From the IMG/VR virus record IMGVR_UViG_3300042691_022450: 64,000 nt of DNA. One strand, written 5' to 3'. Of the stretch, positions 3,675 to 29,500 are shown piece by piece (positions within the stretch are counted from its first letter, which is position 1; every line of letters starts with the position of its first letter). The notes under the pieces were generated by a model that worked only from the letters and a program-made list of their open reading frames with translations, ran no database searches and was not told where the DNA came from. Made by a program: the position numbers and the translations under genes. Source of the DNA: a virus.

Positions 3675-3688
3675 TTATTTTTATTATT

Positions 3689-5141: not shown

Positions 5142-5146
5142 TCAGT

Positions 5147-5205
5147 GTGCCACTTGTAGCACTGTCCCTAACACCTCTCCAAATCCCCTGGAGGGGTGTT
5201 ATACT
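5147..5205 (+). promoter_or_regulatory. Palindrome promoter, copy 5
   Basis: GTGCCActtgtagcacTGTCCC at 5147-5168, 31-bp gap, TGtTATACT (-10 at 5200-5205). Confidence 0.8.
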
Positions 5206-5228
5206 ATGGAGACAAGCAAAGGGGAGGG

Positions 5229-5910
5229 ATGACTCCAAATTGGCAGCACAACTCAGGAAAAAATAAGAATACTAAAGGTTCTTGTAAGGGGAAACTCAAA
5301 GCAAGAAAACAAGCATTGCAGCACATCAAACGCAAACTCAAAGTAATCTGATGACCTATCAAAATCTTCTGGAGATTCTTCAGACTCTCACTCTGGAGCA
5401 GTTGAAGATGGATGTGTCAATTTATGACATTAGTTATGATGAGTTTTGTCCAATGCACAAATTTCATTTTGCAGATAACACTGTAGATGTGCTTGACCCT
5501 GACCACCCTTACCTTTCTTTCTGATTATGAACTCTAAAACTATTACTTACATCTTTCTTGCTTTTATTGCTGTTCTTGGATGGAACTCATTTGCAATTCA
5601 ACGTGATGAGAAAATGTTTGATGCTTATGATAAACAAGTTAAAGAGGTTTGCAAACAACAAACAGGTTGGCATCCAGACTGCAATCTTAAATAAGTATTA
5701 TAGTTTTGACTCCAAATGTCTAAAATTTCATTTACTGAAGGATTGCAAGTTTATTATAAGGGACTGTTTGGTGTCGTAGATTTTGTCTGCGACCAATATA
5801 TCACTGTATGCGTCCGAAAATTTCCAAATGAAAGAGTCAGAAATGTTTGTTTAGTTGTGCATCCAACAGAGTTTTATAATATAAAATTAGCAAAGGAGTC
5901 TACAAAGTAA
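5229..5910 (+). CDS. Run of four small ORFs (5229-5351 basic; 5351-5524 acidic; from 5527 a protein with an N-terminal hydrophobic helix; 5716-5910)
   Basis: Translated by eye: MTPNWQHNSGK..., MTYQNLLEILQ..., MNSKTITYIFLAFIAVLGW..., MSKISFTEGL...; abutting starts and stops. Confidence 0.55.
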
Positions 5911-5950
5911 AGTAAGTCATAAATACCTAAAAAGTCTAGGTATTTCAATA

Positions 5951-6589
5951 ATGACTACAAGAGTTAGTTTAATTGCCAATGACGCAGTAACTGGTGCTGG
6001 AATTAGTAATGAAACAATTACTAATGATGATATAGCACCTGGAACAATATCAACTAATAAGATCAATTTCACCACAGCACTTGTTCCAGTTGGTGGAATT
6101 ATTATGTGGTCTGGAACTACGACACCAGATGGGTGGCAACTATGCAATGGAACTGATTTACCATCAACTTCTCCATTAAGACCAAATATTACAAAAACTC
6201 CAGACCTAAGAGATAGATTTATTGTAGGTGCTACTAGTGGAGGAGATGGTGTTTATCCTGGAGTTGGTGTCAATCAAACTGGTGGTAGTGCCAATGCCGT
6301 TGTAGTTTCTCACATTCATACTGGAACCACTGGTGGGCAAAGTCAAGATCATACTCATACTTGGGGACGACAAGATGCTCAAAATGATGCCAATAATAGA
6401 CCCTGGCCTGCAAGTAATAATGACTGTATAATTAGTGAAGTTCAAACTGGTGGTACATCACAAGACCACACACATAATTTTACAACTTCCGATGCCAAAA
6501 ATGGATCTGATGTTGTCATTGGCGCATCAGCAACAAATGCAAACCTTCCACCATATTATGCCCTTGCGTTCATTATAAGGGTCTTATAA
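5951..6589 (+). CDS. Tail-collar-domain / short-fibre-like protein
   Basis: VPVGGIIMWSG..PDGWQLCNG...TPDLRDRFIVGA, HxH motifs and C-terminal NLPPYYALAFIIR. Late promoter TAAATA at 5920-5925. Confidence 0.85.
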   Translation: MTTRVSLIANDAVTGAGISNETITNDDIAPGTISTNKINFTTALVPVGGIIMWSGTTTPDGWQLCNGTDLPSTSPLRPNITKTPDLRDRFIVGATSGGDGVYPGVGVNQTGGSANAVVVSHIHTGTTGGQSQDHTHTWGRQDAQNDANNRPWPASNNDCIISEVQTGGTSQDHTHNFTTSDAKNGSDVVIGASATNANLPPYYALAFIIRVL

Positions 6590-6599
6590 TTTATCCAAT

Positions 6600-6657
6600 G
6601 TGCCACTCGTAGCACTGGCACAGTAAATGAGCACAGACCCCCCTGATGCCCTACAAT
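6600..6657 (+). promoter_or_regulatory. Palindrome promoter, copy 6
   Basis: GTGCCActcgtagcacTGGCAC at 6600-6621, 30-bp gap, TACAAT at 6652-6657. Confidence 0.85.
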
Positions 6658-6683
6658 ACAGGGACACAAGCAAAGGAGACCAC

Positions 6684-6932
6684 TTGGCAGACCTCGATAC
6701 TATCTTTAACTACACCACCTCTCGTTGGGATTGGCATGAAGGTAATGTCAATCAAATGTGGATTCAAGAGATTGAAGAATCTCCTGATTTTTATCGTTAT
6801 ATTGCCGTTGCTTACAATCCTCGTAAGAATGTGAGCACGGTAGTATCTGAACCTCGTTGCTATGCTGACACCTTGAACTGGGTTCGTATGTATTGCGGTA
6901 ATTTCTGTATTCTTCCTGAGTATTGCTATTGA
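6684..6932 (+). CDS. Hypothetical protein
   Basis: ORF 6627..6932; likely TTG start at 6684 after SD GGAG, downstream of promoter copy 6. Confidence 0.6.
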   Translation: MADLDTIFNYTTSRWDWHEGNVNQMWIQEIEESPDFYRYIAVAYNPRKNVSTVVSEPRCYADTLNWVRMYCGNFCILPEYCY

Positions 6933-7098
6933 TTATGCTTTACAACATTACAGTTGAGTTTAAGGATGGAACTGTCGAGACGTTTCAACGCAGAAGCAAC
7001 ATCAAACCCATCAACAGTGTAAAACTCAACGATAAGATTGCTAACGAAATCTTTCCACGAGAGTGGAAAGAAATCTCTTCCAAACCTGTTTATTGATT

Positions 7099-7479
7099 AT
7101 GTCTTTCACTTTTCTTCGTCTGTCTGCTGGTATCTACGAAGTTCAGAAGGATTCTAACACTGTTGGATTCATTCGTAAAGCATCTGCTGCTAAGTGGATT
7201 GTTGTTGATGTTGTAGACACTCCTCAACAAGTCACAAAGACTCTCAAAGAAGCAAAGGATGCTTGTGTCAATCTAATCATCTTTGATGTGGTTGACAAGA
7301 CCCCTGAACCTGAGTATAATGACTCTGTAGGGGTTGATAAGGTGAATACTGAACTTAATAAGGTTGTTGAAGGTTCTTTGAATTGCTATAAGCAAGTTGA
7401 AGGTACTGATGAGTTTGTAAAAGTATCTCCTACTGAGTTTGGATTCCCTGAACCTACTCTTGAACCGATTGAGTTCTAA
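7099..7479 (+). CDS. Hypothetical protein
   Basis: ORF 7063..7479, likely start ATG 7099. Confidence 0.65.
   Translation: MSFTFLRLSAGIYEVQKDSNTVGFIRKASAAKWIVVDVVDTPQQVTKTLKEAKDACVNLIIFDVVDKTPEPEYNDSVGVDKVNTELNKVVEGSLNCYKQVEGTDEFVKVSPTEFGFPEPTLEPIEF
7292..7320 (+). promoter_or_regulatory. Consensus sigma70 promoter inside the 7099-7479 ORF
   Basis: TTGACA(7292)-17 bp-TATAAT(7315), an exact consensus match. Confidence 0.7.
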
Positions 7480-7661
7480 TGTTTAAGTTTATTTTACACC
7501 TTTTAGTTAATCAAAACAAAATGCACGATTCTACTCTTGACCTGTTCTGCGAACACGAAGATTCTAAGTATGCAGATGAATATGCACTTTATGTTGAAGA
7601 ACTTGCTTCAAAATACGAAGTGACTTGTGATTACATCATCCAAGAGTTTATTCTTGAATAA
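7479..7661 (+). CDS. Small acidic hypothetical protein
   Basis: 60-aa ORF; the true start may be the internal Met (MHDSTLDL). Confidence 0.55.
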   Translation: MFKFILHLLVNQNKMHDSTLDLFCEHEDSKYADEYALYVEELASKYEVTCDYIIQEFILE

Positions 7662-7664
7662 TCT

Positions 7665-7742
7665 GTGCCACTAATTGCACCGTCCATAACACCTTCCGTT
7701 GATTCGGGGGGTGGGATTTGTGTTATTTTTTTATTATAAATA
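7665..7742 (+). promoter_or_regulatory. Palindrome copy 7, lacking its usual -10, followed by a T4-type late promoter
   Basis: GTGCCActaattgcacCGTCCA at 7665-7686; no -10 at the 30-bp position; TATAAATA at 7735-7742. Confidence 0.7.
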
Positions 7743-7766
7743 ATAACAGAAATAACATTAAACCCT

Positions 7767-8273
7767 ATGCCATTCAAAGATGAAAATAAGTTAAAACAAT
7801 ATAGAAAAGATTATTGGGAAAAAAATAAAGAACATTATGAGAAATCCAGAAGAAATAGAATTTCTAATCAAACTGAAGAAGATAAGGAAAACTATAAAAA
7901 TACCAGGAATATATGGAGAGAAAAAAATAAAGATGAAATTAATAAAAAACAGAGAGAAAGGAAAGAAAAACATAAAAAATATTTGATTGAGATGCTTGGT
8001 GGAAAATGTGCTGGATGCGGAACAACTACCAATTTACAATTCGACCATATTGATAGAAATAGTAAGTTATTTTGTATAACTCATCAACTTGCTTCAAAAT
8101 TAGAAAAATTAATAGAAGAGGCAAACAAATGTCAATTATTATGTGATAGTTGCCATAGAATAAAAACATCAATAAATCACGATGCTAATTGTTTAGCAGA
8201 AGGCAAGAGGGTAATTGACATACAAATTATCGGAAGTAAAACCATTGTGACACTAGAACAAGTGTCCCTATAA
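7767..8273 (+). CDS. HNH homing-endonuclease-like protein
   Basis: K/E/R-rich helical N-terminus; LGGKCAGCG, FDHID, KCQLLCDSCHRIKT; much more AT-rich than neighbouring genes. Confidence 0.85.
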   Translation: MPFKDENKLKQYRKDYWEKNKEHYEKSRRNRISNQTEEDKENYKNTRNIWREKNKDEINKKQRERKEKHKKYLIEMLGGKCAGCGTTTNLQFDHIDRNSKLFCITHQLASKLEKLIEEANKCQLLCDSCHRIKTSINHDANCLAEGKRVIDIQIIGSKTIVTLEQVSL

Positions 8274-8304
8274 TTGACCGAGCACGGGGTTTCTGTGCTA
8301 CAAT
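8247..8304 (+). promoter_or_regulatory. Palindrome promoter, copy 8
   Basis: GTGACActagaacaagTGTCCC at 8247-8268, 30-bp gap, TGcTACAAT (-10 at 8299-8304). Confidence 0.75.
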
Positions 8305-8327
8305 ACTTGTATTGATGAATTGATTTT

Positions 8328-9560
8328 ATGAAACTTTATCCCTATCAGCAGAGAACTCTTGATGCGATTAAGTCTCAAATTAAAGGCACTTGCTATCTTC
8401 CTACTGGTGCGGGTAAAACTGTTGTGATGATGGAAGATGCTCGTCAGAGGATTCTTAACGCACTGGAACCAATGACATTTGTTGTTGTTGCTCCTCGTAT
8501 TCTGCTTGCAAATCAACTTTGTTCTGAGTTTGAAGCATATCTCAAGGACCAGAATGTTGCTTATATGCACGTTCACAGTGGTGAAACTCATCATCAATCC
8601 TCTACACGTCCAGCAGACATTGCAGAATACAATGACACTGCAATCGGAAGTGGAAAGCATCAGTTTATCTTCACCACTTATAATTCGATTGGTCGGGTGA
8701 ATGAATCAGATATTGAAATTGATGTTGTGTATTTTGATGAAGCACATCATTGTGTGAAACCATCCAACTTTGTTGGTATTGCACATACTTCATCAGTTGC
8801 AGATAATGCTTATTTCTTCACTGCAACCCCGAAGTTCAATAACAGCACTGAGTCTATGAATAATACTGATGTTTATGGAAATAACATCATCAGTATTCCT
8901 GCACAAGAACTGATTGATGCTGGTAGTATCATTCCTCCCAAAGTTGTGCCTTATGAAGCACAAACCATTCGCACTAAAGAAAATGCTGCATTTGTAGATG
9001 CAGAAAACGTTGTAGGTATTCTCTCAGAGATTTCTGATTGTGATGCTCCTAAAGTTCTTGTTGCTGCTCCAAGCACCAAAGTAATCTGGGCAATGTTTAC
9101 TGAGAGTGATTTGCTTCAACAACTCAATGATATGGGTTATACGATTATGCACATCACTTCCAAGCACGGTGCTTATATTGACAAACAGAAAGTGTCTCGT
9201 GAAGTATTCTTTGAGAAGATGAGTGAGTTTGGTGCAGACCCAGAGAAAAAGTTCATTGTGTTTCACTACAGCATCTTGTCTGAAGGTATCAATGTTCAAG
9301 GTTTGACTCATTGCATTATGCTTCGCAATCTTCCATTGATTGAAATGGCACAGACTGTTGGACGGGTTATCCGTATGCACGGTGATGACCGTAAAGCAAT
9401 CGCAGATGGTAAGATGAAAGCAGGAGAGTTTGCTTTCTACAAGAAACCATTTGGCACTATCACGATTCCTGTTAATAACAACTATGGTGATAAGATTGCA
9501 AAGCAACTTCAAAATGTTGTGGATACTATCTTTGTGAAAGGTGAAGTTCTTGGTGTATAA
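8328..9560 (+). CDS. SF2 DEAH-box helicase (ResIII-like)
   Basis: Q-motif LYPYQ, Walker A PTGAGKT, FDEAHH, TAT, LSEGINV and QTVGRVIR. Confidence 0.9.
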   Translation: MKLYPYQQRTLDAIKSQIKGTCYLPTGAGKTVVMMEDARQRILNALEPMTFVVVAPRILLANQLCSEFEAYLKDQNVAYMHVHSGETHHQSSTRPADIAEYNDTAIGSGKHQFIFTTYNSIGRVNESDIEIDVVYFDEAHHCVKPSNFVGIAHTSSVADNAYFFTATPKFNNSTESMNNTDVYGNNIISIPAQELIDAGSIIPPKVVPYEAQTIRTKENAAFVDAENVVGILSEISDCDAPKVLVAAPSTKVIWAMFTESDLLQQLNDMGYTIMHITSKHGAYIDKQKVSREVFFEKMSEFGADPEKKFIVFHYSILSEGINVQGLTHCIMLRNLPLIEMAQTVGRVIRMHGDDRKAIADGKMKAGEFAFYKKPFGTITIPVNNNYGDKIAKQLQNVVDTIFVKGEVLGV

Positions 9561-9587
9561 ATTATATTATGTGTCCCACATAGAATT

Positions 9588-9752
9588 ATGCCATTTACAA
9601 AGAAATTTCCACAGTCAGGAGAAACAACCCATATTCGGGTTCCGAAATGTTATGCTGAACTCATTGAAGAACTGATGGTAACGTTAGATGAACGATTTGA
9701 TGTAGATAAGGGCAAACATCTACTGAAGAAGTTCATACACAACTTAACGTGA
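9588..9752 (+). CDS. Small putative ribbon-helix-helix DNA-binding protein (54 aa)
   Basis: MPFTKKFPQSGETTHIRVPKCYAELIEELMVTLDE...; strand (THIRVP) followed by helices, as in RHH proteins. Confidence 0.45.
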   Translation: MPFTKKFPQSGETTHIRVPKCYAELIEELMVTLDERFDVDKGKHLLKKFIHNLT

Positions 9753-9767
9753 GTCCAATGATATCCT

Positions 9768-9824
9768 GTGCCACCTGTAGCACTGGCACAGTAAATGAGC
9801 ACATACCCCTAAATGTGTTATAGT
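9768..9824 (+). promoter_or_regulatory. Palindrome promoter, copy 9
   Basis: GTGCCAcctgtagcacTGGCAC at 9768-9789, 29-bp gap, TGtTATAGT (-10 at 9819-9824). Confidence 0.85.
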
Positions 9825-10014
9825 AGTTCTATGGTTGAGGAAGACCTTCAATGACTTACACCCCACATCTTTCTAAGATTCCTTATTTGATGATTCCAGA
9901 AAACAGAGTGAATCTTGCATTCAACTGGTATCAACGAGATAGGAGTCATCCACAAAACTTTCCTGCTTATTCTTATTGGATTCAACAATGCACAAATGAT
10001 GGGAGTGATTACTG

Positions 10015-10197
10015 ATGGAAATGCTTGATACTGTTCTGACTATTGAGGAAGTTTTGACTGATAAACAATTGCTTGCTCTGCAAGACATTCTTTGCCATTA
10101 CAAAGAGTTTCAGGAAGAACTTTACAACTATCCTGAACCTGATACTCTCTTCACTAAGACTCAACAAGAACTGTTTGACATCTTTAACATCAAATGA
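10015..10197 (+). CDS. Acidic hypothetical protein
   Basis: 60-aa ORF, translationally coupled to its neighbours. Confidence 0.6.
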   Translation: MEMLDTVLTIEEVLTDKQLLALQDILCHYKEFQEELYNYPEPDTLFTKTQQELFDIFNIK

Positions 10198-10400
10198 CTT
10201 CTATTTCTTTTACCTCTGGTGAGTTGTTGGATATTATGTCCGTACTTGAAGAGAAAGAAAATGCTCTTCAACTTGCAGAGAATTATCAACTCTCTGCTTA
10301 TTATATGCACCTTGGGGGTCAATTCCAACGGATTTATGATAAACTGCAGGAGTTTGTTCCTGAGAACCGAGTTGCCAATCTTGTCCTTGCTGTGAATTGA
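10194..10400 (+). CDS. Hypothetical protein
   Basis: 68-aa ORF with ATGA overlap. Confidence 0.6.
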   Translation: MTSISFTSGELLDIMSVLEEKENALQLAENYQLSAYYMHLGGQFQRIYDKLQEFVPENRVANLVLAVN

Positions 10401-10669
10401 TGACTATGGAAACACACAGTCTGATTATTCTTTCTACTGCACACCTACATCCATTGGAAGCAGCAAAGATTGATGAATTTTCTTATGTTGGAAACAAAGA
10501 ATGTGCTCTTGTTTCCACTGTTTCAGAGATGAGGGATTTCTATTATCAGGGTGGATTGGTTTGCTTGTGCGACCTGTTGAAATTGGTGCAAGAAAAATAT
10601 AATGCAAAATATGTTCTCTTTGACCCTGATGCAGATACTACTGATGAGTTCAGGTGTTATCAATGGTGA
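10397..10669 (+). CDS. DUF5983-like hypothetical protein
   Basis: LSTAHL...DLLKLVQEKYNAKYVLFDPDA pattern. Confidence 0.5.
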   Translation: MMTMETHSLIILSTAHLHPLEAAKIDEFSYVGNKECALVSTVSEMRDFYYQGGLVCLCDLLKLVQEKYNAKYVLFDPDADTTDEFRCYQW

Positions 10670-10670
10670 T

Positions 10671-10728
10671 GTGCCAGTTGTAGCACTGGCACACTAAAAG
10701 AGCACAGAGGCACCAGATGCCTTATAAT
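10671..10728 (+). promoter_or_regulatory. Palindrome promoter, copy 10
   Basis: GTGCCAgttgtagcacTGGCAC at 10671-10692, 30-bp gap, TATAAT at 10723-10728. Confidence 0.85.
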
Positions 10729-10749
10729 ACTCTCATACGAAACAAACCG

Positions 10750-10917
10750 ATGACCCTGACCGAAGCAAACAAGATATGGTCCGACTGTTACAACAGCGGC
10801 GACCTCTCACTGTGGAACAACTATACTAACGCCCAGCGTGAGCAGGCAATCGCCACCCGAGACGCCCACTTCAACGGTCGCCAGTGGGGCATCTGGAACA
10901 TCAACGATTGGGACTGA
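10750..10917 (+). CDS. GC-rich hypothetical protein (55 aa)
   Basis: MTLTEANKIWSDCY...; 68 of 120 bases at 10801-10920 are G/C, with C-ending codons. Confidence 0.65.
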   Translation: MTLTEANKIWSDCYNSGDLSLWNNYTNAQREQAIATRDAHFNGRQWGIWNINDWD

Positions 10918-10948
10918 TTGCCCTACCTGGTGGTCTGACTGGTAAGTG

Positions 10949-11007
10949 ATGGCACTCTGAAAACTGGCACAGGGCATCCTTCGGAGTGCCCTTTGATGCC
11001 TTATAAT
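10949..11007 (+). promoter_or_regulatory. Palindrome promoter, copy 11 (degenerate left arm)
   Basis: atGGCActctgaaaacTGGCAC at 10949-10970, 31-bp gap, TATAAT at 11002-11007. Confidence 0.7.
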
Positions 11008-11032
11008 ACTCTCATACACAAAGGAACTTCAA

Positions 11033-11299
11033 ATGCTTGATGCCTTTACTGATTATCCTATTGAAAAACTTGATGATATTGAATTTGAAAAAGCACCCAT
11101 TCGTAAATGCACCATTCTAACTTGGGACAGAAATAAGTATTGTGATGTCCTTGTATATTTTGTAGATGAGGATGGTGATTTGCGAGGACACATTACTAAC
11201 TTCAAGCAGTGGTATTTGTATAAGAATGAAGCACGACTTGATGATGGTATTCAATTTACTGATGATGAACTGAAAACTCTTCCTTGGACTTGCCGATGA
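11033..11299 (+). CDS. Hypothetical protein
   Basis: 88-aa ORF with SD AAGGA. Confidence 0.7.
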   Translation: MLDAFTDYPIEKLDDIEFEKAPIRKCTILTWDRNKYCDVLVYFVDEDGDLRGHITNFKQWYLYKNEARLDDGIQFTDDELKTLPWTCR

Positions 11300-11660
11300 C
11301 TGCTATTGAAATTGATGAAATGATGAACCGAATGGAATCATTTGGTGGTTCATTTGTTGTTGCACTTGCTTATGCAATGCGAAAAGCAGACCCATCAAAT
11401 AAAACTAGACTGATTCTTGCCTTTCCTGAGTATGTGAAAGAGTATGGACCAGAAAGTCAGTTTCCTGCGTATGAATGATGAAACCTAAGTTCCGTGCCGT
11501 ATTAGAAATGGCAATAGAAGAAGGTGTAAGGTTTGGATACAATCGTGCTTTTAAGCATAATTCAGAACCACACATTGATTCTATATCTGATAGTATAGTT
11601 ACAGAAATCTTTAATTCACTTGACACTTGGTTTGATGACATCAACGACACTGAAAACTAA
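11296..11660 (+). CDS. Two coupled small hypothetical proteins (about 11296-11478 and 11475-11660)
   Basis: ATGA overlaps; motifs GGSFVVALAYAMRKAD and LEMAIEEGVRFGYNRAFKH. Confidence 0.6.
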
Positions 11661-11661
11661 A

Positions 11662-12057
11662 ATGAATCCTGAAATTAAACAGAAATGGGTTGATGCTCTG
11701 CGTTCTGGTAAGTATGACCAGGGCAGTAAGAAACTCCGCAGTCATCAAGGTTATTGTTGCCTTGGTGTTCTTTGTGATTTGTATGCACAAGAACAGAATA
11801 GAGAGTGGAAGTTTAGTGGAGAGTATGAGGAAAGTCCTCTCCCGATGGATTATTGGTATTTCGATGGTGAGGGTGAGTTTCTGCCCGACTCTGTAAGAGA
11901 ATGGGCAGGATTTTCTCTTCCTAGTCCTGAAGTTCGAGTTGATGTAACCGACAATGATGATGAGGATGATTGGTTCTATAATGATGAGATTGCCAGTCTG
12001 AACGATACAGGTTATACTTTTGAAGCACTTTCTAAACTAATCAAAGAACAATTTTAA
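11662..12057 (+). CDS. Conserved phage hypothetical protein (W..ALRSG.Y.QG / CCLGVLC family)
   Basis: ATG 11662; KWVDALRSGKYDQG...YCCLGVLCDL...LNDTGYTF. Confidence 0.7.
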   Translation: MNPEIKQKWVDALRSGKYDQGSKKLRSHQGYCCLGVLCDLYAQEQNREWKFSGEYEESPLPMDYWYFDGEGEFLPDSVREWAGFSLPSPEVRVDVTDNDDEDDWFYNDEIASLNDTGYTFEALSKLIKEQF

Positions 12058-12236
12058 TGGAACAACAAACTGTGACTCAATACAAGTCTGTAAATCTTAC
12101 TCTGTATTTCAATGCTGAATTGGATGATGGTGAGGTACAAGATTTCATTGACCGTATGACTGGAAAGTATAATCATCCTGATGACATCATCAAAGATTAT
12201 GAATACTGGTATGATGAGTGAGTCTAGTGTGAGACT

Positions 12237-12295
12237 GTGCCACTTGTAGAGGTGGCACACTATACCCCCCAAACCCCTTGCTGAGGTGCTACAAT
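12237..12295 (+). promoter_or_regulatory. Palindrome promoter, copy 12
   Basis: GTGCCACttgtagagGTGGCAC at 12237-12258, 31-bp gap, TGcTACAAT (-10 at 12290-12295). Confidence 0.85.
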
Positions 12296-12320
12296 GATTG
12301 CATTGAAGGTTGAGAGACCA

Positions 12321-12716
12321 ATGACCGAAACACAAGTTCAACTCAAAGAAGCCACTGTTGATTTCATTAAGGATTTGGTTGAGCAATCCTATTATGATGA
12401 AGATATGTATATTTTCATCGGTGAGCACGGTGAAGATACATTTGTTCAGTATTATGAAGAGTATGTTCAGTTTGGTGAATCTTATAACTATCGTGCTGTA
12501 GATACTTTCATTGAAGAGTTTGGTATTGATAATCTATCTTCCTTTGAAGATGCTTACCGTGGTGAATGGGAGTCTAAAGCAGATTATGCGGAAAACTTTG
12601 TAACTGATTGTTATTCTGTTGATTTCCCTGCTTTTATTGAGATTGACTGGGAAAATACCTTTGACAATCTTGATTCTGTTTATGTCAATGGTTTTGTTTT
12701 TGATACCCAATTCTGA
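12321..12716 (+). CDS. ArdA-like anti-restriction (DNA mimic) protein
   Basis: Very acidic. FEDAYRGEWESKADYAENFV...PAFIEIDWE resembles the ArdA C-terminal domains. Confidence 0.65.
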   Translation: MTETQVQLKEATVDFIKDLVEQSYYDEDMYIFIGEHGEDTFVQYYEEYVQFGESYNYRAVDTFIEEFGIDNLSSFEDAYRGEWESKADYAENFVTDCYSVDFPAFIEIDWENTFDNLDSVYVNGFVFDTQF

Positions 12717-12719
12717 ATT

Positions 12720-12968
12720 ATGAAACTTCAATCTAACGATGGAAACATGGTGGTAGATTTCTACCCCATCAAAACACCTTTTGGTGATGTATCTCAAGAG
12801 TGGTTCTTGAAGACTCTCACTTTTATGGGTCAAAGTCAATCCAAGAAGTTTCTCAATCGCATTGAGATGAATCTTGAGATTGAAGAATATCTCAATCACA
12901 CTATTCCGTATGAAGTTGTAGACTTCAATACGATTCCACAACTTGCTAATCCTTTTATTGGTGTCTGA
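12720..12968 (+). CDS. Hypothetical protein
   Basis: 82-aa ORF. Confidence 0.65.
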   Translation: MKLQSNDGNMVVDFYPIKTPFGDVSQEWFLKTLTFMGQSQSKKFLNRIEMNLEIEEYLNHTIPYEVVDFNTIPQLANPFIGV

Positions 12969-12970
12969 CA

Positions 12971-13186
12971 ATGCTTCTGAAACTAACTGACATTGAGTTT
13001 GATTTTGATGATGGAGAAGAAATCTCTGGGGAACTTCCTTATGATGAACAGGTTGCAGTCACTAAATCCGTGATTGGTGAAGTCTTTGAGGTTGAGACTG
13101 AAGATGAACTTGCTGATGCAGTTTCTGACAGAACTGGTTGGTGTGTGAAATATCTTGATTATGTTGAAATCTCTGAATCTCACTGA
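12971..13186 (+). CDS. Very acidic hypothetical protein
   Basis: 71 aa with IEFDFDD...LADAVSDRTGWCV; its stop TGA begins a TGAGTCCAATG element. Confidence 0.7.
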   Translation: MLLKLTDIEFDFDDGEEISGELPYDEQVAVTKSVIGEVFEVETEDELADAVSDRTGWCVKYLDYVEISESH

Positions 13187-13201
13187 GTCCAATGATGCCC
13201 T

Positions 13202-13258
13202 GTGCCACTTGTTCTAGTGGCACACTAAAAGAGCACAGACCCCTAAATGTGGTATTCT
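13202..13258 (+). promoter_or_regulatory. Palindrome promoter, copy 13
   Basis: GTGCCACTtgttctAGTGGCAC at 13202-13223, 29-bp gap, TGgTATTCT (-10 at 13253-13258). Confidence 0.85.
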
Positions 13259-13315
13259 TAAAGGGTGGAAGGGGTCGCACCCACCCGCAAACGTCCAAAC
13301 TCTATTTTAATCAAA

Positions 13316-13513
13316 ATGACTGTTGATTTCTCTCGTGATGTGATGGTTGGTATGCTCCGCAAGGGTGATACTGGCAACGACATTCTGGATATTCTGAATG
13401 TTCTTGTTCCCGATCAAACTGAACTCACTCGTGAGCAAGTTTGTGAAGACCTGGGCATTGCTGATTGTCCTGAGAATGATGATGAGATTGCCCGTGCTAT
13501 GGTTGCTGCCTGA
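13316..13513 (+). CDS. Acidic hypothetical protein
   Basis: ORF 13265..13513, likely start ATG 13316. Confidence 0.65.
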   Translation: MTVDFSRDVMVGMLRKGDTGNDILDILNVLVPDQTELTREQVCEDLGIADCPENDDEIARAMVAA

Positions 13514-13567
13514 GTTTAATTTGGGGGAGATTCAATTCTCCCTCTGTGGATTTAATTCATTTACTCT

Positions 13568-13765
13568 TTGATTCCAATGTTTGTTATCTGTCCCGCATCT
13601 TTTGATTTGATTGATGCTGAGTGGTTTGACAATGTATATGAAGCAAAAGATGAAGCACTTGATTGGAGTGTTGAACTCTCTGGTGAGAATGTGATTGTTT
13701 ATCGGGCAGTTGAGGAAGATGATGGTGCTTATGAGTTTGATAAACTCTATGCCATCTCTGCCTGA
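13568..13765 (+). CDS. Acidic hypothetical protein
   Basis: 65-aa ORF. Confidence 0.6.
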   Translation: MIPMFVICPASFDLIDAEWFDNVYEAKDEALDWSVELSGENVIVYRAVEEDDGAYEFDKLYAISA

Positions 13766-14090
13766 TGAGAACTAAAACACTCACATTTAGACCACCAAAT
13801 AAGATGCGAACTATAATTCTTATCTTTGCGGTTGCATTTATTTTCTCTCCGAGTGTGAGGAATGTAACTGCAAACACACTTTACACTGTTGCTGACGTTA
13901 TTTCATCCAAATGACACTCACTCACATTAACAATCAAAAACTTAAGCAGTTTGCTATTACTGCTCCTGGATTTGAGTTTCCTGATTATGTTTATGCAGAA
14001 ACAAGAGAACAAGCAATTCTAGAGTGGGCAGATACTATTGTTTGTGCTGATGTAACTGAAATTGAAGAACGGTGAGTCCAGTGTTGAGAC

Positions 14091-14147
14091 ATGCCACTTG
14101 TAGCACTGGCACACTAAACGGGCACTGGCACTTTTTTCTGGTAAATT
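14091..14147 (+). promoter_or_regulatory. Palindrome promoter, copy 14
   Basis: aTGCCActtgtagcacTGGCAC at 14091-14112, 29-bp gap, TGgTAAATT (-10 at 14142-14147). Confidence 0.8.
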
Positions 14148-14199
14148 AAGAGGGTGGAAGGGGTCAGTCCCATCCGAGTCCAATTCTTCACTTCTTGTT

Positions 14200-14874
14200 A
14201 TGGATCGTCAGCAAGTTATCGCAAAGATTCAATCCATTCTGAAACTGCAGAATGGAACTTCTTTTGAAGGTGAGGCAGATGCTGCTGCCAAGATGATTGA
14301 TAAACTGTGTAAGCAGTATGGTGTTACAATCACCGAAGCAACTGAAACTCAAGTTTATGATGAATCTTTCATCAATTTCAAACGTGTGAATGTTGCACTT
14401 ACGACTCTTCTGAATGCGATTGCATCTTTCTATGATGCAAAGGCATATATGAAGAATGGTGATGTTAAGTCTCTGCAAATCATTGGTAGTGAAGCACAAC
14501 AAATCCAAGTGCGTCTCTATTATGATTACCTGAATCAAGTGATGGAGAAAGAAGCAGAAGTTGCATATCAAGCAGAGAAGATTATGTCTGCTCTAACTGG
14601 TGCAACTGTTTCTCGTAGTTTCAAACTTAATTTCCGCAAGGCATTTGCAGATAATGTTGCTCTGCGTTTGCGTGAAATGAAGAAAGCAGAGAACCGAGTT
14701 CACGATGATGCAAAAGCAGTGAGTGATAAACTCTCTACGATGCGATTCGGACGTGCAAAGAAGATGAATGGTGCTAATGGTGCTGGTGCTTATGCTGGTT
14801 CTAACGTTGGTGCTGGTGTATCTCTGAACCGTCAAGCAACTGGTTCTGTGACCAAACAACTGTGTGGAGTGTGA
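14200..14874 (+). CDS. DUF2786-domain protein
   Basis: N-terminal IAKIQSILKL...FEGEADAAAKMIDKLCKQYG; C-terminal F..AFADNVALRL...G.NVGAGVSLNRQ. Confidence 0.75.
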   Translation: MDRQQVIAKIQSILKLQNGTSFEGEADAAAKMIDKLCKQYGVTITEATETQVYDESFINFKRVNVALTTLLNAIASFYDAKAYMKNGDVKSLQIIGSEAQQIQVRLYYDYLNQVMEKEAEVAYQAEKIMSALTGATVSRSFKLNFRKAFADNVALRLREMKKAENRVHDDAKAVSDKLSTMRFGRAKKMNGANGAGAYAGSNVGAGVSLNRQATGSVTKQLCGV

Positions 14875-14918
14875 GTTAATCTCACCTCTACTTCACTTTT
14901 CCCTTTATTCCTAATACG

Positions 14919-15251
14919 ATGAACGCACAACTGACAATTGATGAGTGTAAACTGATGTGGGTTGTTGGTGCATTGCAACGACTTGCAACTTTGGGTATGA
15001 TTGGTCCTGATATTCCTCTGAAACTTTCTGGTAGTGCAGTAGATGATTATCTTTATATTGATGAGCATCGGGAAATTCTGTTTGAATCTGATTTTGAGAT
15101 TGCAAGTATTTTCACTGCTCTTGTCAATAGTGAATGTGACCCAAAAGTTCAAAATCCTGATGATACCAAACCTCTGATTGAACTTCTTCTGCAATATAAG
15201 AACAATCGCACCGAGATTGTGAAGTATGCACTCTCGCAACAAGTTATTTGA
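14919..15251 (+). CDS. Hypothetical protein
   Basis: 110-aa ORF. Confidence 0.65.
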   Translation: MNAQLTIDECKLMWVVGALQRLATLGMIGPDIPLKLSGSAVDDYLYIDEHREILFESDFEIASIFTALVNSECDPKVQNPDDTKPLIELLLQYKNNRTEIVKYALSQQVI

Positions 15252-15451
15252 AAATGACAATGGATAAAGATTTAATGCAAATCACACTGAGTAAGGAAAA
15301 TTATAAGGTTCTACATAAACTCATCTGCGACCAAATGGTTTATATTCTTTCTCCATTTGACAATGATGATTATGAACCAACGCAAGAACATCTAAAGATT
15401 CTCGACGCAGTTACAAAGTTCAGTTCTTATCAAGTTACTTACAATGTTTGA
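15248..15451 (+). CDS. Hypothetical protein
   Basis: 67-aa ORF. Confidence 0.55.
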   Translation: MKMTMDKDLMQITLSKENYKVLHKLICDQMVYILSPFDNDDYEPTQEHLKILDAVTKFSSYQVTYNV

Positions 15452-15692
15452 CCTTCTGAAGTTTAACCCCCATCATATTCCTGAGTCTATTCAAGCACGA
15501 CATAAGTTTTCCAACGGTTGGGAGATTAGTGTAGTTGCTGGTCCACCGAATTGTGGTCTCTATGGCAACATCAATGAGAACACTTATGAAGTTGCAATTT
15601 TCCGTCCCAATGGAAATATGACTGAAGATGTAAATGGTTGGAATACTAAAGAAGAAGTATCTGCGATGATGTGGGTGCTGTCTCAACTCTAG
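15444..15692 (+). CDS. Conserved phage hypothetical protein
   Basis: KFSNGWEISVV...GLYG...TYEVAIF pattern. Confidence 0.65.
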   Translation: MFDLLKFNPHHIPESIQARHKFSNGWEISVVAGPPNCGLYGNINENTYEVAIFRPNGNMTEDVNGWNTKEEVSAMMWVLSQL

Positions 15693-15705
15693 TCTCTTAT
15701 ACCGT

Positions 15706-15762
15706 GTGCCACTTGTAGCACTGGCACAGTAAAAGAGCACAGACCCCTGGATGTGGTATATT
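15706..15762 (+). promoter_or_regulatory. Palindrome promoter, copy 15
   Basis: GTGCCActtgtagcacTGGCAC at 15706-15727, 29-bp gap, TGgTATATT (-10 at 15757-15762). Confidence 0.85.
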
Positions 15763-15811: not shown

Positions 15812-17217
15812 ATGCAAACTCTTCAGATGACTGCTGCTCAACGGATGGAAAAGCAATTCTTCATTCAAATGATTCAACTTGTGAATGAAGTGCAAGGTAA
15901 GCAGAAACTTCCTTCTCAAGTTAATTCTTCTCGTAAGTCTGCTTGGTGTAAGAAAGTTTCTAATCCCAAGCAAAAGAAAGATGCACTTGCTCGCATCTAG
16001 TTCTTAATTCTTTCATCTGTCCCACACAAACAACAAACAATGCTGATCAAAACTGTTTTCGATGTTCAAACCAAGCAAGCAGGTTATGCTATTTGTGATC
16101 CTGCCACTGAACGTTGTGGTTTTGTGACTTATAGCATCATCAATGCTATTAAAGCAGGGCAATGTAAAACCTTCGCACAAGTTCAACAACTCATCAATGC
16201 CTGAAATGAATCAAATGTATGAAGTTACTTATCAGGTGCCTTACAACGATTGTGAATGGAGAAGTCAATACTTTAATACTCTACAAGAAGCACAATCAAT
16301 GGTAGAGTTTTATAGGTCTTGTGGATCTCCTGCTAAACTGATTGAACGTAAAGTAAGTAACTGAAATGACTCAAACTCTCACTGAAACCATCTACTCTGA
16401 TGCTCTGTTATTTCTGACTCGATACTTCAATCAGTTTGATGAATGTCAGTTGCAAGAACACGATGATTTGACTATTCAAGACATTGTTGATGTTCTTGGT
16501 TATGCAAGTTTCGAGGAGCATTATCATTCTGATGTAGCATATATTTCTGATATTCAGACACTCAATAAACTTCGTAATGAAATTCGCAATCGGTTCTATC
16601 AATGACTGAACTCATCAATCGAACTCATATGCTTATCGAGGCACTTGAGTATTATATTCAAGACCTCAAAAAGAATAATTGCACTGAAGCATCTATTCAA
16701 GCATACACAACTCTTCTCAAAGAGATTGATGTTGACAACTACTCAGTCATTGATTAAAACAAAGATGAAACGTAAAGAAAAACTTGAACTACTATCTAAA
16801 GCACAAGATGGTAATGAACTTCTTCTAATCGCACAAGCAATTATTAACTCTCAAACCAAATGATTATTCTTCAAAAAGAAAACCACGGTTGTGTTTATAC
16901 AATTGATCCTGATACTCAAGAACTCTTCTATGCCCCCATTCATACAAACAACACTGTAAATCTTTCTGAGTTTGCACCTGTTGATCTATCAAGTGTAGAT
17001 GATGAATATGATGTAATTACGATTCAAAAAGAACTGATTAACCTAAACAAATAGTAATACAATGAATGAAACGTTTGTAAGGTTGAGTGAAGAACAAATC
17101 AATCTGATTATGTTCTGTCTAGAGCAAATGGAATGTGATTTCAATGAGACTGAACAATCATTATGCGAAGCAATCATTGACTCTTTCACCACTGCTCTAG
17201 TAGAGATAAACACTTAA
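15812..17217 (+). CDS. Last early module: run of about 8 small ORFs (15812-16000, 16366-16605, 16860-17054 and several under 60 aa)
   Basis: Abutting short + strand ORFs from the track and read by eye, ending where the non-coding region starts. Confidence 0.55.
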
Positions 17218-17354
17218 TCATAAGATGAAATAATCATTTATAACGATAAAATGTTTTAATTGATAATTAAATTAAATGTATTAAAAAACATATGTTAGTG
17301 TTTTGTGTTGATATAATGATAGTGTTATAATAGTCTTTATATCCTCTTTATACT

Positions 17355-17411
17355 CTTATAAATGCCTCTAGTTCTTGTCTTTAGACACTTATAAATGCCT
17401 CTAGTTCTTGT
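17355..17411 (+). repeat. 24-bp direct repeat
   Basis: CTTATAAATGCCTCTAGTTCTTGT at 17355-17378 and 17388-17411. Confidence 0.9.
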
Positions 17412-17424
17412 TGTCTAGGCCCGC

Positions 17425-17483
17425 ATTATACCATAAGACCCAAAAAAAGTCAAGGGCATTACAGACACTCCTAGGGGTGGCAC
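17425..17483 (-). promoter_or_regulatory. Minus-strand sigma70 promoter with an upstream palindrome copy
   Basis: On the minus strand: GTGCCAcccctaggagTGTC (from 17483), 31-bp gap to the -10; TTGACT(17453-17448)-17 bp-TATAAT(17430-17425), with an extended TG. Confidence 0.8.
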
Positions 17484-17573
17484 AAGACATATAGACAATG
17501 AAACTCCTGAGACTCACACATCTTATGAGTCTTGGGAGTATTTTGCTAGTTACTCGTAAGACTCATAGGTCTC

Positions 17574-17631
17574 AAACCACTGCAGTAACTGGCACATCGT
17601 ATCGTGAGTCTCACTGATTCTGCGATAGACT
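17574..17631 (+). promoter_or_regulatory. Degenerate palindrome promoter pointing into the DnaA-box cluster
   Basis: aaaCCActgcagtaacTGGCAC at 17574-17595, 30-bp gap, TAGACT at 17626-17631. Confidence 0.55.
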
Positions 17632-17691
17632 TATAGGGTCGGGAGGGGAGGGAATATTATAAACTCCCATAACTGATAAGAAATACGCACC

Positions 17692-17868
17692 TGTGGAAAA
17701 ATAGTTTTCCACAGGTTTCATTCATTTCCTATAGGGGAAAGTAATGATTTCCCACAGATAGTTTTCCACAAGTTTATGATGATTTGTAGTGTTTGCAAGG
17801 GTTTATAAGAATTGCCCTGTGGAAAAAGTCTTATAGTTTTCCACAGGTTCGTTATATCTTGTGGAAAA
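17692..17868. promoter_or_regulatory. Cluster of cyanobacterial-type DnaA boxes (TTTTCCACA)
   Basis: Perfect copies: 17692-17700(-), 17705-17713(+), 17762-17770(+), 17818-17826(-), 17837-17845(+), 17860-17868(-). One mismatch: 17748-17756(+). Confidence 0.8.
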
Positions 17869-18003
17869 CTATTCGTGTTAGAATCTCATTCGTCCTGAGA
17901 GTTCGTTATACATAAGAGTTCGTTATAATCATTCGTTGTGCTTATAGTATTATAATATATTCGTCTTATAGTATAATAATATAATAGCAACGTTATGTTT
18001 GAG

Positions 18004-18237
18004 ACCCCCCATAAGGTTTGCTATTTCAATCAGACAGTGCTATACTATTCGTTGTACACAGTTTCTGACATAAACTGATGTCGTCCTCTGAGTATCATAA
18101 ACTCTCGGAGGAGTTCGTTATGCAACCCCCCATAAGGTTTGTTATTCTTATTGACCAAGACTACATAATTCGTGTTGCACAGTTCGTGTTATAAACTGAT
18201 GTCCTCCTTTCGTTATATCTAACCCCCCATAAGGTTT
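18004..18237 (+). repeat. Iteron-like degenerate long repeat
   Basis: ACCCCCCATAAGGTTT at 18004, 18125 and 18222; ATAAACTGATGTC at 18070 and 18191 (121-bp period). Confidence 0.85.
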
Positions 18238-18516
18238 CGTATTAGAATTAAACAGTAATGAATATAAACTATTCGTGATTGTTCGTTTATTATAATTAAA
18301 CAGCACTGTTTGACAGTTATATTTTGTGTTGTTGTATTCTTATACCTAACCGATGCCCCCTTATATAAAATCAATGGGTCCTTCAAGGCTACACCGAACC
18401 GAAAACGAGAGAGTAATTGTCTTTCAAATAAAAAAATTTTTCCAAAAAATTTTTCCAAAAAAGTTGAGGGCACAAGAACAAAAAATGATATATAAGTTTA
18501 GAATTTAATCAAAAAA

Positions 18517-18883: not shown

Positions 18884-19633
18884 ATGGCTAAAGGATTTAC
18901 GGTAAAAGCAAAACTTCCGACAGGACCTGTGGAAGGAGAGTTTAATTTAGAAGCAGCAAAAGAAATGATCCGAGGCAAATCAATTGTCTTTTGTTTGCCT
19001 GGACGAGGAGTATCTTATCTGTATCTGAAGAATTTTGTTCAATTATGTTTTGACCTTGTTCAGAACGGAGCAAGTATTCAGATTTCACAAGACTACAGTT
19101 CAATGGTGAACTTTGCACGATGCAAATGTCTTGGAGCAAATGTTCTCAGAGGACCCAAGCAGATTCCTTGGGATGGAAAACTACAGTATGATTATCAACT
19201 CTGGATTGACAGTGATATTGTCTTTGATACTGAGAAGTTCTATCGTCTTGTAGCAATGGACAAAGAGATTGCTGCTGGATGGTACTGCACTGAAGATGGT
19301 CACACCACATCGGTTGCCCATTGGTTACAGGAAGATGATTTCAGAAGCAATGGTGGTGTGATGAACCACGAGACACTGGAGACCATTCAGAAACGTCGTA
19401 AACCATTTACAGTGGATTACACAGGTTTCGGATGGGTTTTGATTAAGAAAGGTGTATTTGAGAATCTTGAGTATCCTTGGTTTGCTCCGAAGATGCAGGT
19501 CTTTGAATCTGGTGAAGTTCAAGATATGTGTGGAGAGGATGTTTCATTCTGTCTTGATGCAAAAGAGGCAGGATATGAGATCTGGTGCGATCCTCAAATT
19601 CGTGTTGGTCACGAAAAGACACGAATCATCTGA
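18884..19633 (+). CDS. Conserved cyanophage protein, GT-A glycosyltransferase-like
   Basis: MAKGFTVKAK start, LWIDSDIVF (DxD motif), TGFGWVLIK, GEDVSFC, VGHEK. Confidence 0.8.
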   Translation: MAKGFTVKAKLPTGPVEGEFNLEAAKEMIRGKSIVFCLPGRGVSYLYLKNFVQLCFDLVQNGASIQISQDYSSMVNFARCKCLGANVLRGPKQIPWDGKLQYDYQLWIDSDIVFDTEKFYRLVAMDKEIAAGWYCTEDGHTTSVAHWLQEDDFRSNGGVMNHETLETIQKRRKPFTVDYTGFGWVLIKKGVFENLEYPWFAPKMQVFESGEVQDMCGEDVSFCLDAKEAGYEIWCDPQIRVGHEKTRII

Positions 19634-26500: not shown

Positions 26501-29500
26501 AATTATTATGTTACTGTAATTGATAGCAATAGATTTAAATTATCAGTTTTTGGATCTTCTGAAAATCAAAGAATTAATTATGATAATAAAAAATATGTTA
26601 GGTTTTCTTCTGTAGGGGTAGGAACTCACATTTTCTCATATCCACCAATTCAAATTGAAATTGAACACGTTTCTGGAATTGCAACTTCACCATCGGCAGA
26701 ACCGATAGTTCTTGGATCAATTGAAAATGTTTTTATCACAAATGATGGAAAAAATTATGGTTCTCCTGATACATTAAATTATCACAGAAAACCTAGAGTT
26801 GGAATTTTCAGTATTCTTTCTGAATGTATTCTAAAACCAGTTTTGTTGAATGGTTCTATTGTTGATGTTCAAATATTAAACTCTGGTAGAGGATACGGGA
26901 AAGACATTGATATAAAGATATTTGGCAAAGGAAAATATGCAGAATTATATCCAATTGTAACAAATGGAAAAATAACAAGTATTAATATTTTGAATTCTGG
27001 TATAGGTTATGATGAAAAGACTACGTTACTTATTCAAAGAAGAGGTTTAGGTGCAAGATTTAGTGCCAATATTTTTGAATGGAAAATTAATCAAGTAGAA
27101 AAAAACAAAAAAATTATTTCACCCAATGATGGGGGTTTAATTGTACCTAGTAAAAACAACGAAACAACACTGGAATTTATTCATTTTTATCCACCAAAAA
27201 ATCTAAGATTTAAAGTTAATAATTTTATTGATAAAGATAATAATGAAATCTTACCAGACAATAATCAAAATCCATATAAAATTTTAGGGTGGGCTTACGA
27301 TGGAAATCCAATTTTTGGACCATATGGAAAAGTTAATGGTGAGTCAAAATTATTACAATCAAGCTATAAACTAAAAAATTCTGGTGAAATCGGAATTTCA
27401 ATTTCAAATCAACTGAGACCCAATTTTGGATCAGGATTTTTTGTACAAGATTATCTTTATGATAGGGGAACTGGAGATTTAGATGAATATAATGGAATGT
27501 TTATTAATGACAAAAATTTACCAAATATTAACTATGGTTACTTTTCAACGATTTCTAATGATGAAAAAGAACCACAGTATCCATATACAGTACCTTTGAA
27601 TTTTAAAGATTTACCAATAGAAGAAAATTTTAATCCGTTATTTAATCAAGATTTTAATTTTGAATCCTTAGATATTGTTAGAAATATTGGACCTTATTAT
27701 TTGAATTCAAGTAATTCTTCTTATGATTTAATTGATAAAATTGATTCAAAATATAAACAAGAATTTATTGTTAAAGATATAAGTTCTTCTGGTATAACTT
27801 CAATTTCTATTTTTGAACCAGGTGATAATTATAAAGTAGGAGAATTAATTAAATTTGACAGTAAATCTTCTGGTGGAAATTCAGTTTCTGCTGAGATTTC
27901 TAGGATAAAAGGAAAAAACGTATCAAATGTACAGGTTGGAATTTTAACATTTACTGATGTAAATTTCATCACAAAGGGTGTTTCAATAAAAGGAATTACA
28001 AATCAACCACATAATCTAATTAGTGATGATGAAATCATTATATCCAATTTGTCATCAAGTGAATTTAATCATTTGGAAGGAACTAAAAAAATATATGTTT
28101 TCCAAAACAGTGCAGGATTAGTAGAAAACCTAGAGAGTCAATCAGTTACTGGAGTGACAACATACGTTAAAGTTACCGATGTATCTGGATTTGAAGTTGA
28201 TAATTTTATAGGAATAGGAACAGAAGTTTTAAAAATAATCAACATTTCTTCAACGGAATCAAAATTATACGTAAATAGATTTGATAATTATTCTGGAATA
28301 CACAGTGTAGGATTTGCAACTGTAACTTTGTTGCCAAATACATTTACATTTTCAACTCAAAAATATGAAGATGATATAGTTGAAAATAAAACTGTTTATT
28401 TCAATCCAAGCAATACGATTGGAATTGGAACAACTGGTTCAATTTATTATAACATAGTCGGATTTCAAACTGCTTTCGGAACTTTAAATGCAACAGGTCT
28501 CAGCACAGTTGGTGTAAATACTACTTTATTGGAAATTGGTGATTATGTATTTGGGACTAATATTCAAAATAACACAACTATAACATCAATTGGGATTGGT
28601 TCAATTACAATAACACCAGACCACACTCTTGGTGGTGGGATATCAACAAATTTATTGACATTTTCAAGGAAAATATACGATAAAACTGTTCCAAGTCGTT
28701 CAATATACATACCAAGTCACAAATTTTATACTGGACAATCTATTACTTATAATGTTGGGTTGGTTGGAAATGGCATTGTGGTTTCTGAAACTGGGACAGG
28801 AACAACATTTAGATTAGCAAACAACCAAACAGTATATACAGTTAATTTAGGAAAAGATTATGTTGGTCTATCTACTTTAGGATTTACTACTAGTACTGGA
28901 ATTGGAACGACACAAAATTCTTTATATTTTAGAAGTCCTATTGAAAATATTGGTTTGGCTCATTCTTTGACAACTCAATATGAAAAAATTAAGGGGAAAG
29001 TAAATAATTATTCAGTAGTCGTTTCAACTTCTCAAACACACGGTTTGCAAACAGGTGACAATATTAAATTTAATTTTGAACAAAGTAACACAAATACTAT
29101 AAAATTAAGATACGACAAAGTAATTAGAAAAATAACTACAGAACTTATTGATTTTGACCCCTTATCGGGAATAAACACACTCACAAATGAAATTAATATT
29201 CCTGGAAATAATTTAAAAACAGGAGATAAGATTGTTTATTATACTAATGACCAAACTTCTGTTGGTGGATTATCTACAAATGCTGTGTATTATGTTTTAA
29301 AACAAAATCCAGATAAAATTAAGTTATCAAGTTATCAATATGATGCTAATGTTGGAATTGCAATTACTTTGACTTCTGTTGGTGCAGGATTAACTCACAA
29401 TTTTGCTCTCGTCAATCCACCAATCAATATTTTAAATGGAAATATAATATCCTTTGATTTAACTGATGGTAGTCTTTCAAATATGGATTTGAGACTATAT

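Follow-up and report, generated by a model that had tools for sequence, protein, structure and literature searches.

A conserved cluster of cyanobacterial-type DnaA boxes in a putative control region of T4-like cyanophages and its possible ties to the host replication initiator

Clusters of DnaA boxes outside oriC, among them datA of Escherichia coli, can hold many DnaA molecules, and host DnaA boxes are put to use by foreign replicons such as P1 (at oriR) and the iteron plasmids. Phage T4 begins replication from R-loops and by recombination and does so independently of DnaA, as the first-pass annotation of the DNA described here had stated and the literature bears out. T4 origins of the oriF/oriG type consist of a promoter with an A+T-rich unwinding element downstream; both oriF and oriG depend on a MotA middle promoter, and the origin transcript forms an R-loop that primes replication and is later removed by UvsW. 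For the origin of phage lambda, a transcriptional activation that is stimulated by DnaA is cited in PMC8477408. In cyanobacteria, the 9-mer TTTTCCACA is the DnaA box employed by Ori-Finder and DoriC and in an in vitro study of Cyanothece, and it is bound well even by the DnaA protein of E. coli. To date, some pelagiphages are known to encode a DnaA DNA-binding domain, and a paper on a Pseudomonas phage presents an Ori-Finder-predicted origin with DnaA boxes; our literature search returned nothing that links DnaA boxes to cyanophages and no mapping of a replication start in T4-like cyanophages. DnaA-box clusters and DnaA-assisted foreign replicons are already known, but are not known from a T4-type lytic phage.

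The cluster described here was found in a stretch of viral DNA of 64,000 bases, which was analysed at its full length and is called the window throughout. Judged by its genes, the window is that of a T4-like cyanomyovirus: Pfam searches recovered T4 gp6 baseplate domains, a gp15-type tail sheath stabiliser, and a ResIII/DEAD helicase, and a tblastn search with gp6 led to T4-like cyanomyoviruses, the closest being S-SCSM2R, Sf-FS3, and S-SSM7 at ~60%. A UvsW-like helicase gene is located at 8328–9560 (Pfam only), and a gp59 helicase loader is annotated in other cyanophage records. The host may be a freshwater picocyanobacterium, since the sample numbers of some related IMG/VR contigs recur among freshwater-lake cyanobacterial MAGs. 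The early region also holds two HNH endonuclease ORFs (4508–4984 and 7767–8273, the second with a weak match), which may be homing endonucleases, and the gene of a 140-aa early protein (12294–12716) with a weak match to the ArdA antirestriction family (E 6e-4, below the Pfam cut-off); homologues of this protein are common in related contigs.

The boxes lie within a gap of more than a kilobase (Table 1), and gap analysis agreed with the first-pass annotation that this is the sole large non-coding region; the next largest apparent gap of the window is occupied by a GTG-start ORF. Blocks of small plus-strand early genes flank the gap on both sides, most small neighbouring genes being without known function, and neither Pfam nor PHROGs assigned a DNA-binding family to the small flanking ORFs. 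No tRNA was found in the gap, and an Rfam search over the boxes yielded only a His-leader match below threshold. Outside the array, the gap aligns with four relatives at 55–81% identity and, as read from its sequence, is a conserved control module.

An exact search of all 64,000 bases found six perfect copies of TTTTCCACA and one single-mismatch copy within the same 177 bp (17692–17868), in both orientations, and zero perfect copies elsewhere in the window, which is what the first-pass annotation had reported from reading the letters. Shuffles of the window give an expectation of 2.1 copies per 64 kb; chance would supply ~0.006 copies per 177 bp, and the Poisson estimate for six, with all windows allowed for, is ~1e-14. 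The copies share the extended consensus ATAGTTTTCCACArG. Two pairs of boxes form perfect inverted repeats (17689–17716, with a 4-nt gap, and 17816–17847, with a 10-nt gap), and the small palindrome between the boxes may represent a pair of weak, degenerate boxes. With several 9-bp consensus matches within a few hundred bp, far in excess of chance, the array has the make-up of a DnaA-box cluster and, being a cluster of high-affinity boxes outside an origin, also that of a datA-type site. Like datA of E. coli, it is a group of strong boxes away from the chromosomal origin with room for many DnaA molecules; unlike datA, it sits on a lytic phage and is multiplied by phage replication. Inspection by eye revealed no obvious trinucleotide repeat of the DnaA-trio kind between the boxes and the AT-rich block, and the neighbours of the array are small phage early genes, with no linkage to dnaA or dnaN. 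A switch in GC skew, which the first-pass annotation had suggested looking for, is absent: the skew is positive left and right of the array, with only a local dip at 15–18 kb, and the test is a weak one in that skew in T4-type genomes follows transcription.

Table 1. Features of the non-coding gap and the box array, in window coordinates.
Feature	Coordinates	Strand	Basis or remark
Large non-coding gap	17218–18352 (1135 bp)		gap analysis; sole large stretch without a plus-strand ORF
AT-rich block	17228–17287		fifth easiest-to-melt 60-mer of the window; partly kept in relatives
Two tandem 33-nt repeats, 94% identical	17345–17410		directly downstream of the predicted backward promoter
Strong predicted backward promoter, TTGACT-17 nt-TG-extended TATAAT (11 of 12)	17425–17453	-	promoter scan; kept in relatives
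Predicted early-type promoter, half-dyad ACTGGCACA-29 nt-(-10)-like TAGACT	17588–17631	+	layout as in the 15 dyad promoters
DnaA box 1 (TTTTCCACA)	17692–17700	-	left arm of the palindromic pair 17689–17716
DnaA box 2	17705–17713	+	right arm of the palindromic pair 17689–17716
Small palindrome between boxes, TTTCC/GGAAA arms	17718–17737		kept in the window, L121, L066, L124, and L139
Single-mismatch box TTTCCCACA	17748–17756	+	perfect in relatives L121, L066, and L139
DnaA box 3	17762–17770	+	exact search
DnaA box 4	17818–17826	-	left arm of the inverted pair 17816–17847
DnaA box 5	17837–17845	+	right arm of the inverted pair 17816–17847
DnaA box 6	17860–17868	-	exact search
AT-rich block, candidate unwinding element	17943–17982		75 bp right of the last box; several TATAAT-like hexamers

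The array is shared with many other phages. Scanning IMG/VR with the extended 15-mer recovered more than 117 loci, 38 of which (30 distinct sequences) contain 4–8 perfect boxes within ~450 bp. Most of these arrays are syntenic, lying ~1.0–1.3 kb upstream of a conserved 249-aa gene (18884–19633 in the window) and before gp25 and gp6, as determined by tblastn with the window ORFs. The gp6 proteins of the array-bearing syntenic contigs are just 38–96% identical to that of the window while the 9-mer is unchanged, and such invariance across wide phage divergence would fit constraint by a conserved host protein. When the array was aligned with those of four close relatives, box columns were 90–95% identical versus 65–71% for the spacers; among close relatives, copy number shifts by whole box units. 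Adjacent direct boxes are 11–12 bp apart in 18 cases and 20–22 bp apart in 28, distances that correspond to one and two helical turns. Lack of conservation in relatives, which the first-pass annotation had named as grounds for giving up its reading, is thus not what we found, as many relatives keep the boxes at the syntenic spot.

Cultured relatives were located with a 35-nt query around the first box pair, a blastn search of the phage collection with the whole gap having given no match. In Syn1, a pair accompanies three tandem boxes 12 bp apart; in ACG-2014d, two boxes occur in addition to four with exactly 2 bp between them. S-PM2 has three boxes in 34 bp and Syn9 one box pair, and the palindromic pair is present in S-CAM4, S-RIM44, and ACG-2014j. 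A complete relative of 284 kb (G065, IMGVR_UViG_3300027541_000009) carries two separate arrays (29317–29434 and 239066–239129; L329 3066–3310), the second of which lies between an opposite-strand 287-aa gene and a plus-strand gene. Five perfect copies of TTTTCCACA in ~130 bp were also seen in a 55% GC phage contig that is unrelated to the window (L060, IMGVR_UViG_3300029844_000252, 5221–5354; weak portal-protein match, E 1e-8, below the Pfam cut-off), and DnaA-box clusters may be more widespread in phages.

The distribution of the array is patchy, and it is therefore dispensable for T4-like cyanophages as a group. In a motif-blind sample, which was drawn through the 249-aa protein and comprised loci with at least 2 kb upstream of its gene, just 5 of 40 loci had at least four perfect boxes. 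In S-SSM7, S-SCSM2R, and Sf-FS3, the corresponding 9 kb that precede gp6 contain no cluster (S-SSM7 has two copies of TTTTCCACA in its whole genome, S-SCSM2R one); none was detected in P-SSM2, P-SSM4, and two complete contigs, and the nearest record to the window (13 kb) is without a box. Because several related complete genomes do without it, the array cannot be a general origin of T4-like cyanophages.

Where the array is present, predicted promoters adjoin it, a feature to which the first-pass annotation gave no weight in its reading of the boxes. The early promoters of the window (15 copies, 926–15762) are without a -35 element and consist of a 22-bp dyad, TGTGCCA-N8-TGGCACA, followed at ~29 nt by a -10 hexamer that is often TG-extended; the dyad resembles a binding site for a dimeric activator or the promoter stem-loop cassettes of other T4-type phages. 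From a half-dyad in the same layout, we infer an early-type promoter that would read into the boxes, with a predicted start at ~17639 and the first box ~50 nt downstream in the transcript. Its half-dyad ACTGGCACA and the word TAGACTTATAGGG are kept in the four relatives aligned over the promoter block (L121, L066, L124, and L139). Outside the stretch 926–15762, dyad-type elements lie at 17474–17482 and, within the predicted early-type promoter just described, at 17588–17596. The conserved 160-nt block at 17490–17650 contains five TGAGTCT/AGACTCA words in both orientations; a structured RNA received no support there, the covariation term of RNAalifold on five sequences being positive, and the block is better read as promoter dyad elements.

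The backward promoter is of the plain sigma-70 type. From its predicted start at ~17418, transcription would leave the boxes behind and enter the tandem repeat and the left AT-rich block, which lies 130–190 nt downstream of the start, and the transcript has no obvious gene to express. Strong backward promoters of the sigma-70 type are predicted within or next to 22 of the 27 distinct arrays; for forward promoters the count is 19. Clades differ in how the boxes are placed relative to the promoters: in one of them, a box pair follows the backward start site, and the main group of boxes lies upstream of that site. The second array of G065 repeats this layout, with a predicted backward promoter that reads into or through four boxes and a divergent forward promoter beside it. 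The AT-rich block to the right of the boxes is the easiest-to-melt 40-mer in the 64 kb by nearest-neighbour energy, a rank that depends on window size and falls to eleventh at 60 bp.

Several short repeats were also noted in the gap. The relatives carry a single copy of the 33-nt repeat core, AAATGCCTCT..GTTCTTG. To the right of the boxes (17848–18300), about a dozen TTCGT or TTCGTTAT words occur on the plus strand, often directly before TATAAT-like hexamers, and these words recur in L121, L066, L124, and L139. Between 18004 and 18254, ACCCCCCATAAGGTTT occurs three times, each time heading a repeat of ~121 bp (74% identity over 84 nt), and the relatives also have C-rich words followed by TATA.

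The region may resemble T4 origins in that the backward promoter would yield a transcript without an obvious gene, AT-rich blocks lie near or downstream of the predicted promoters, and repeats stand at a syntenic place in relatives. It differs from them in the distance from backward promoter to AT-rich block, which is longer than in T4, and in its boxes, as T4 origins have no shared motif and no host initiator sites. The predicted early-type promoter would also transcribe the boxes, and the inverted pairs might then act at the RNA level, as hairpins in an early transcript leader that serve in attenuation, termination, or stabilisation. In line with this, 17689–17716 folds at -17.2 kcal/mol (z = -5.8) and 17750–17880 at -48.4 kcal/mol (z = -7.3), and the first hairpin was scored as terminator-like on the minus strand. 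We nonetheless regard an RNA-level role as very unlikely: direct repeats replace the inverted pairs in relatives (L097 has five consecutive ones, ACG-2014d four, and Syn1 three), the arms are without covariation and are always a DnaA box, and the first hairpin is followed by a weak U-tail that L121 does not keep.

For comparison with the host, bacterial genomes were reached through phage psbA and belong to the WH7803 family (Prochlorococcus/Synechococcus). In 26 genomes of this family, the 350 bp upstream of dnaN contain 4–6 boxes within one mismatch of TTTTCCACA that span ~200 bp, occur in both orientations and at recurring positions, and include 0–2 perfect copies; one sampled host oriC has five perfect boxes, some of them 12 bp apart. 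These 26 regions and the literature concur with the first-pass annotation that the 9-mer is the DnaA box of cyanobacterial oriC, and the phage box matches that of host DnaA at oriC, with the comparison made to the host family. Among the hosts richest in G+C (L311, L313, L314, L319, and L320), the boxes upstream of dnaN are mostly TTTTCCCCA and not TTTTCCACA.

The phage array and picocyanobacterial oriC thus have much in common—that is, the same 9-mer in both orientations, 4–8 sites in 200–400 bp, a preference for G after ACA, and some tandem boxes 11–12 bp apart. The preference for G is found in 41–45% of host boxes and 75–79% of boxes in phage arrays, and the flanks of the phage boxes are more conserved than those of the host (A at -2, G at -1, and G at +1 and +2), which could be a pointer to another binder. 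Unlike oriC, the array is not beside dnaN or dnaA, has a different spacing, and is embedded between predicted phage promoters; its boxes are nearly all perfect, whereas those of host oriC mostly have one mismatch. The first-pass description of a host-like oriC therefore stands for the boxes, which are of the host type, and not for the region as a whole: the array is host-like in its sites yet no copy of oriC, because the spacing differs and, apart from the boxes, nothing in the gap resembles the oriC regions of the sampled hosts; it is also missing from several related complete genomes.

The same comparison bears on the idea that the array was taken up from host oriC only recently and has no function in its own right. 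Host-derived DNA is frequent in cyanophages, and the box type is that of the host, but the perfect boxes outnumber those of almost any sampled host oriC, the arrangement is conserved across deeply diverged phages with boxes more constrained than spacers, and the differences in spacing and surrounding sequence just given speak against capture as well. We consider such an origin of the array exceedingly improbable.

Three host genomes (WH7803, RCC307, and MIT S9451), all of which encode DnaA, contain only 8–16 perfect boxes each, which is no higher than the count for a control word. Close pairs of perfect boxes were found in 4 of 41 host genomes, and two such pairs are in the region upstream of dnaN. 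A convergent pair of perfect boxes, spaced 44 bp, is common to WH7803 (1819368–1819420, L288) and MIT S9451 (207001–207053, L289); a third near-box stands 170 bp upstream of it. The pair lies far from both dnaN and dnaA and may be a site regulated by host DnaA.

The small number of perfect boxes in host chromosomes, together with the mostly imperfect boxes at host oriC, would suit a DnaA sink like datA, in which the array titrates host DnaA and stops new rounds of host chromosome replication, the promoter setting being incidental. Such a sponge was one of the two functions that the first-pass annotation had put forward, the other being recruitment of host DnaA for the first round of phage replication. 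By our reckoning, a single phage genome would add perfect sites amounting to ~1/3 to 3/4 of those of the host chromosome, and replication would multiply them; the box copy number is also free to vary between relatives, as expected if number outweighs layout. A simple sink, however, needs neither promoter association nor helical phasing, and most arrays occupy a single syntenic place, many relatives have no array, and host shutdown in T4-type phages is usually achieved by other means. We therefore hold titration to be an unlikely main role.

As to the protein that occupies the boxes, host DnaA is probably the binder, because the boxes match its site at 9/9 positions, do not drift over a wide phage divergence, and are helically phased. 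Among phages, the DnaA AAA+ domain (PF00308) was not found in Syn1, ACG-2014d, and S-CAM4, the DnaA DNA-binding domain (PF08299) was not found in these three or in Syn9 and S-PM2, and a tblastn search with WH7803 DnaA gave no match in the window or in ~200 viral loci. The boxes might instead be operators or iterons for a phage-encoded DNA-binding protein, as the 12-nt repeats of T4 oriE perhaps are, with the resemblance to a DnaA box arising by coincidence or mimicry. The evenly spaced direct repeats of oriE are not DnaA boxes and have no known binder, and the conservation of the phage boxes reaches past the 9-mer. A few of the small neighbours without known function are, in addition, commoner in array loci, such as a 62-aa ORF (15812–16000 in the window) that is present at 10 of 19 array-bearing loci and at 0 of 33 loci without an array. 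Against this, no neighbouring gene is common to all array-bearing loci, in a co-occurrence test that is confounded by relatedness and flank length, and the phages examined have no DnaA-type DNA-binding domain. A 9/9 match to the host initiator site is, moreover, improbable by chance, and the word does not drift over a very wide divergence, whereas phage regulator-operator pairs usually co-vary. A phage-encoded binder accordingly appears improbable to us, and host DnaA remains the preferred candidate.

On balance, we lean, by a modest degree, towards the view that the array is a set of host DnaA-binding sites in a divergent-promoter control region, where bound DnaA would gate transcription, and possibly DNA opening, so that early transcription or origin firing would be linked to the host initiator. 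The observations behind this view are the sites themselves and their enrichment, the conservation and helical phasing of the boxes, the fact that boxes of host oriC are identical to them, the adjoining predicted promoters, and the absence of a recognisable phage DnaA; from these we infer DnaA binding, promoter activity, and any effect on replication at the array. After injection, the phased boxes would be filled by host DnaA-ATP. They would stand ~50–230 nt downstream of the early-type plus-strand promoter and ~240 nt behind the strong backward promoter, and DnaA on them could gate transcription across the region and, aided by the AT-rich blocks on either side, might contribute to opening of the DNA. 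The opened region could supply a transcript or an R-loop to be used by the T4-type replisome of the phage, and the start and timing of early transcription and of origin-dependent replication would then track the state of the host initiator. As a side effect, many copies of the six perfect boxes would sequester DnaA.

A need for DnaA is not obvious in such a phage, since T4-type phages carry their own replisome and start from R-loops and by recombination. P1, the iteron plasmids, and lambda are like the array in having host DnaA sites in a foreign replicon, and lambda in working through transcription near the origin. Those elements, however, depend on the replisome of the host and, for their part, supply Rep or O/P proteins with iterons, whereas the array belongs to a phage of the T4 type that has its own complete replisome and in which no Rep protein was identified. 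A further-reaching proposal, which we put forward only tentatively and consider rather doubtful, is that several T4-like cyanophage lineages have a dedicated origin that depends on or is gated by host DnaA and is opened, with transcription from the flanking promoters, for the phage replisome. If this were true, the first round of phage replication would be coupled to the cell-cycle, light, or nutrient state of the host, and the array would provide T4-type phages with their first example of an origin dependent on a host initiator; it would also be the first origin mapped in a group of viruses that is very abundant in marine and fresh waters.

A large share of the Prochlorococcus and Synechococcus of the ocean is killed by T4-like cyanophages, and the conserved array is a precisely defined target that could be studied at low cost by binding, ChIP, copy-number, and mutant work. 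Small versions of it are borne by S-PM2, Syn9, and Syn1, laboratory phages for which genetic tools and transcriptomes exist. If the array were only a sink, it would represent a new phage route to stopping host replication. If DnaA acts at the array, a lytic phage with its own replisome would still read the replication-initiation state of its host, and this may bear on the established finding that cyanophage replication depends on light and on the physiology of the host.
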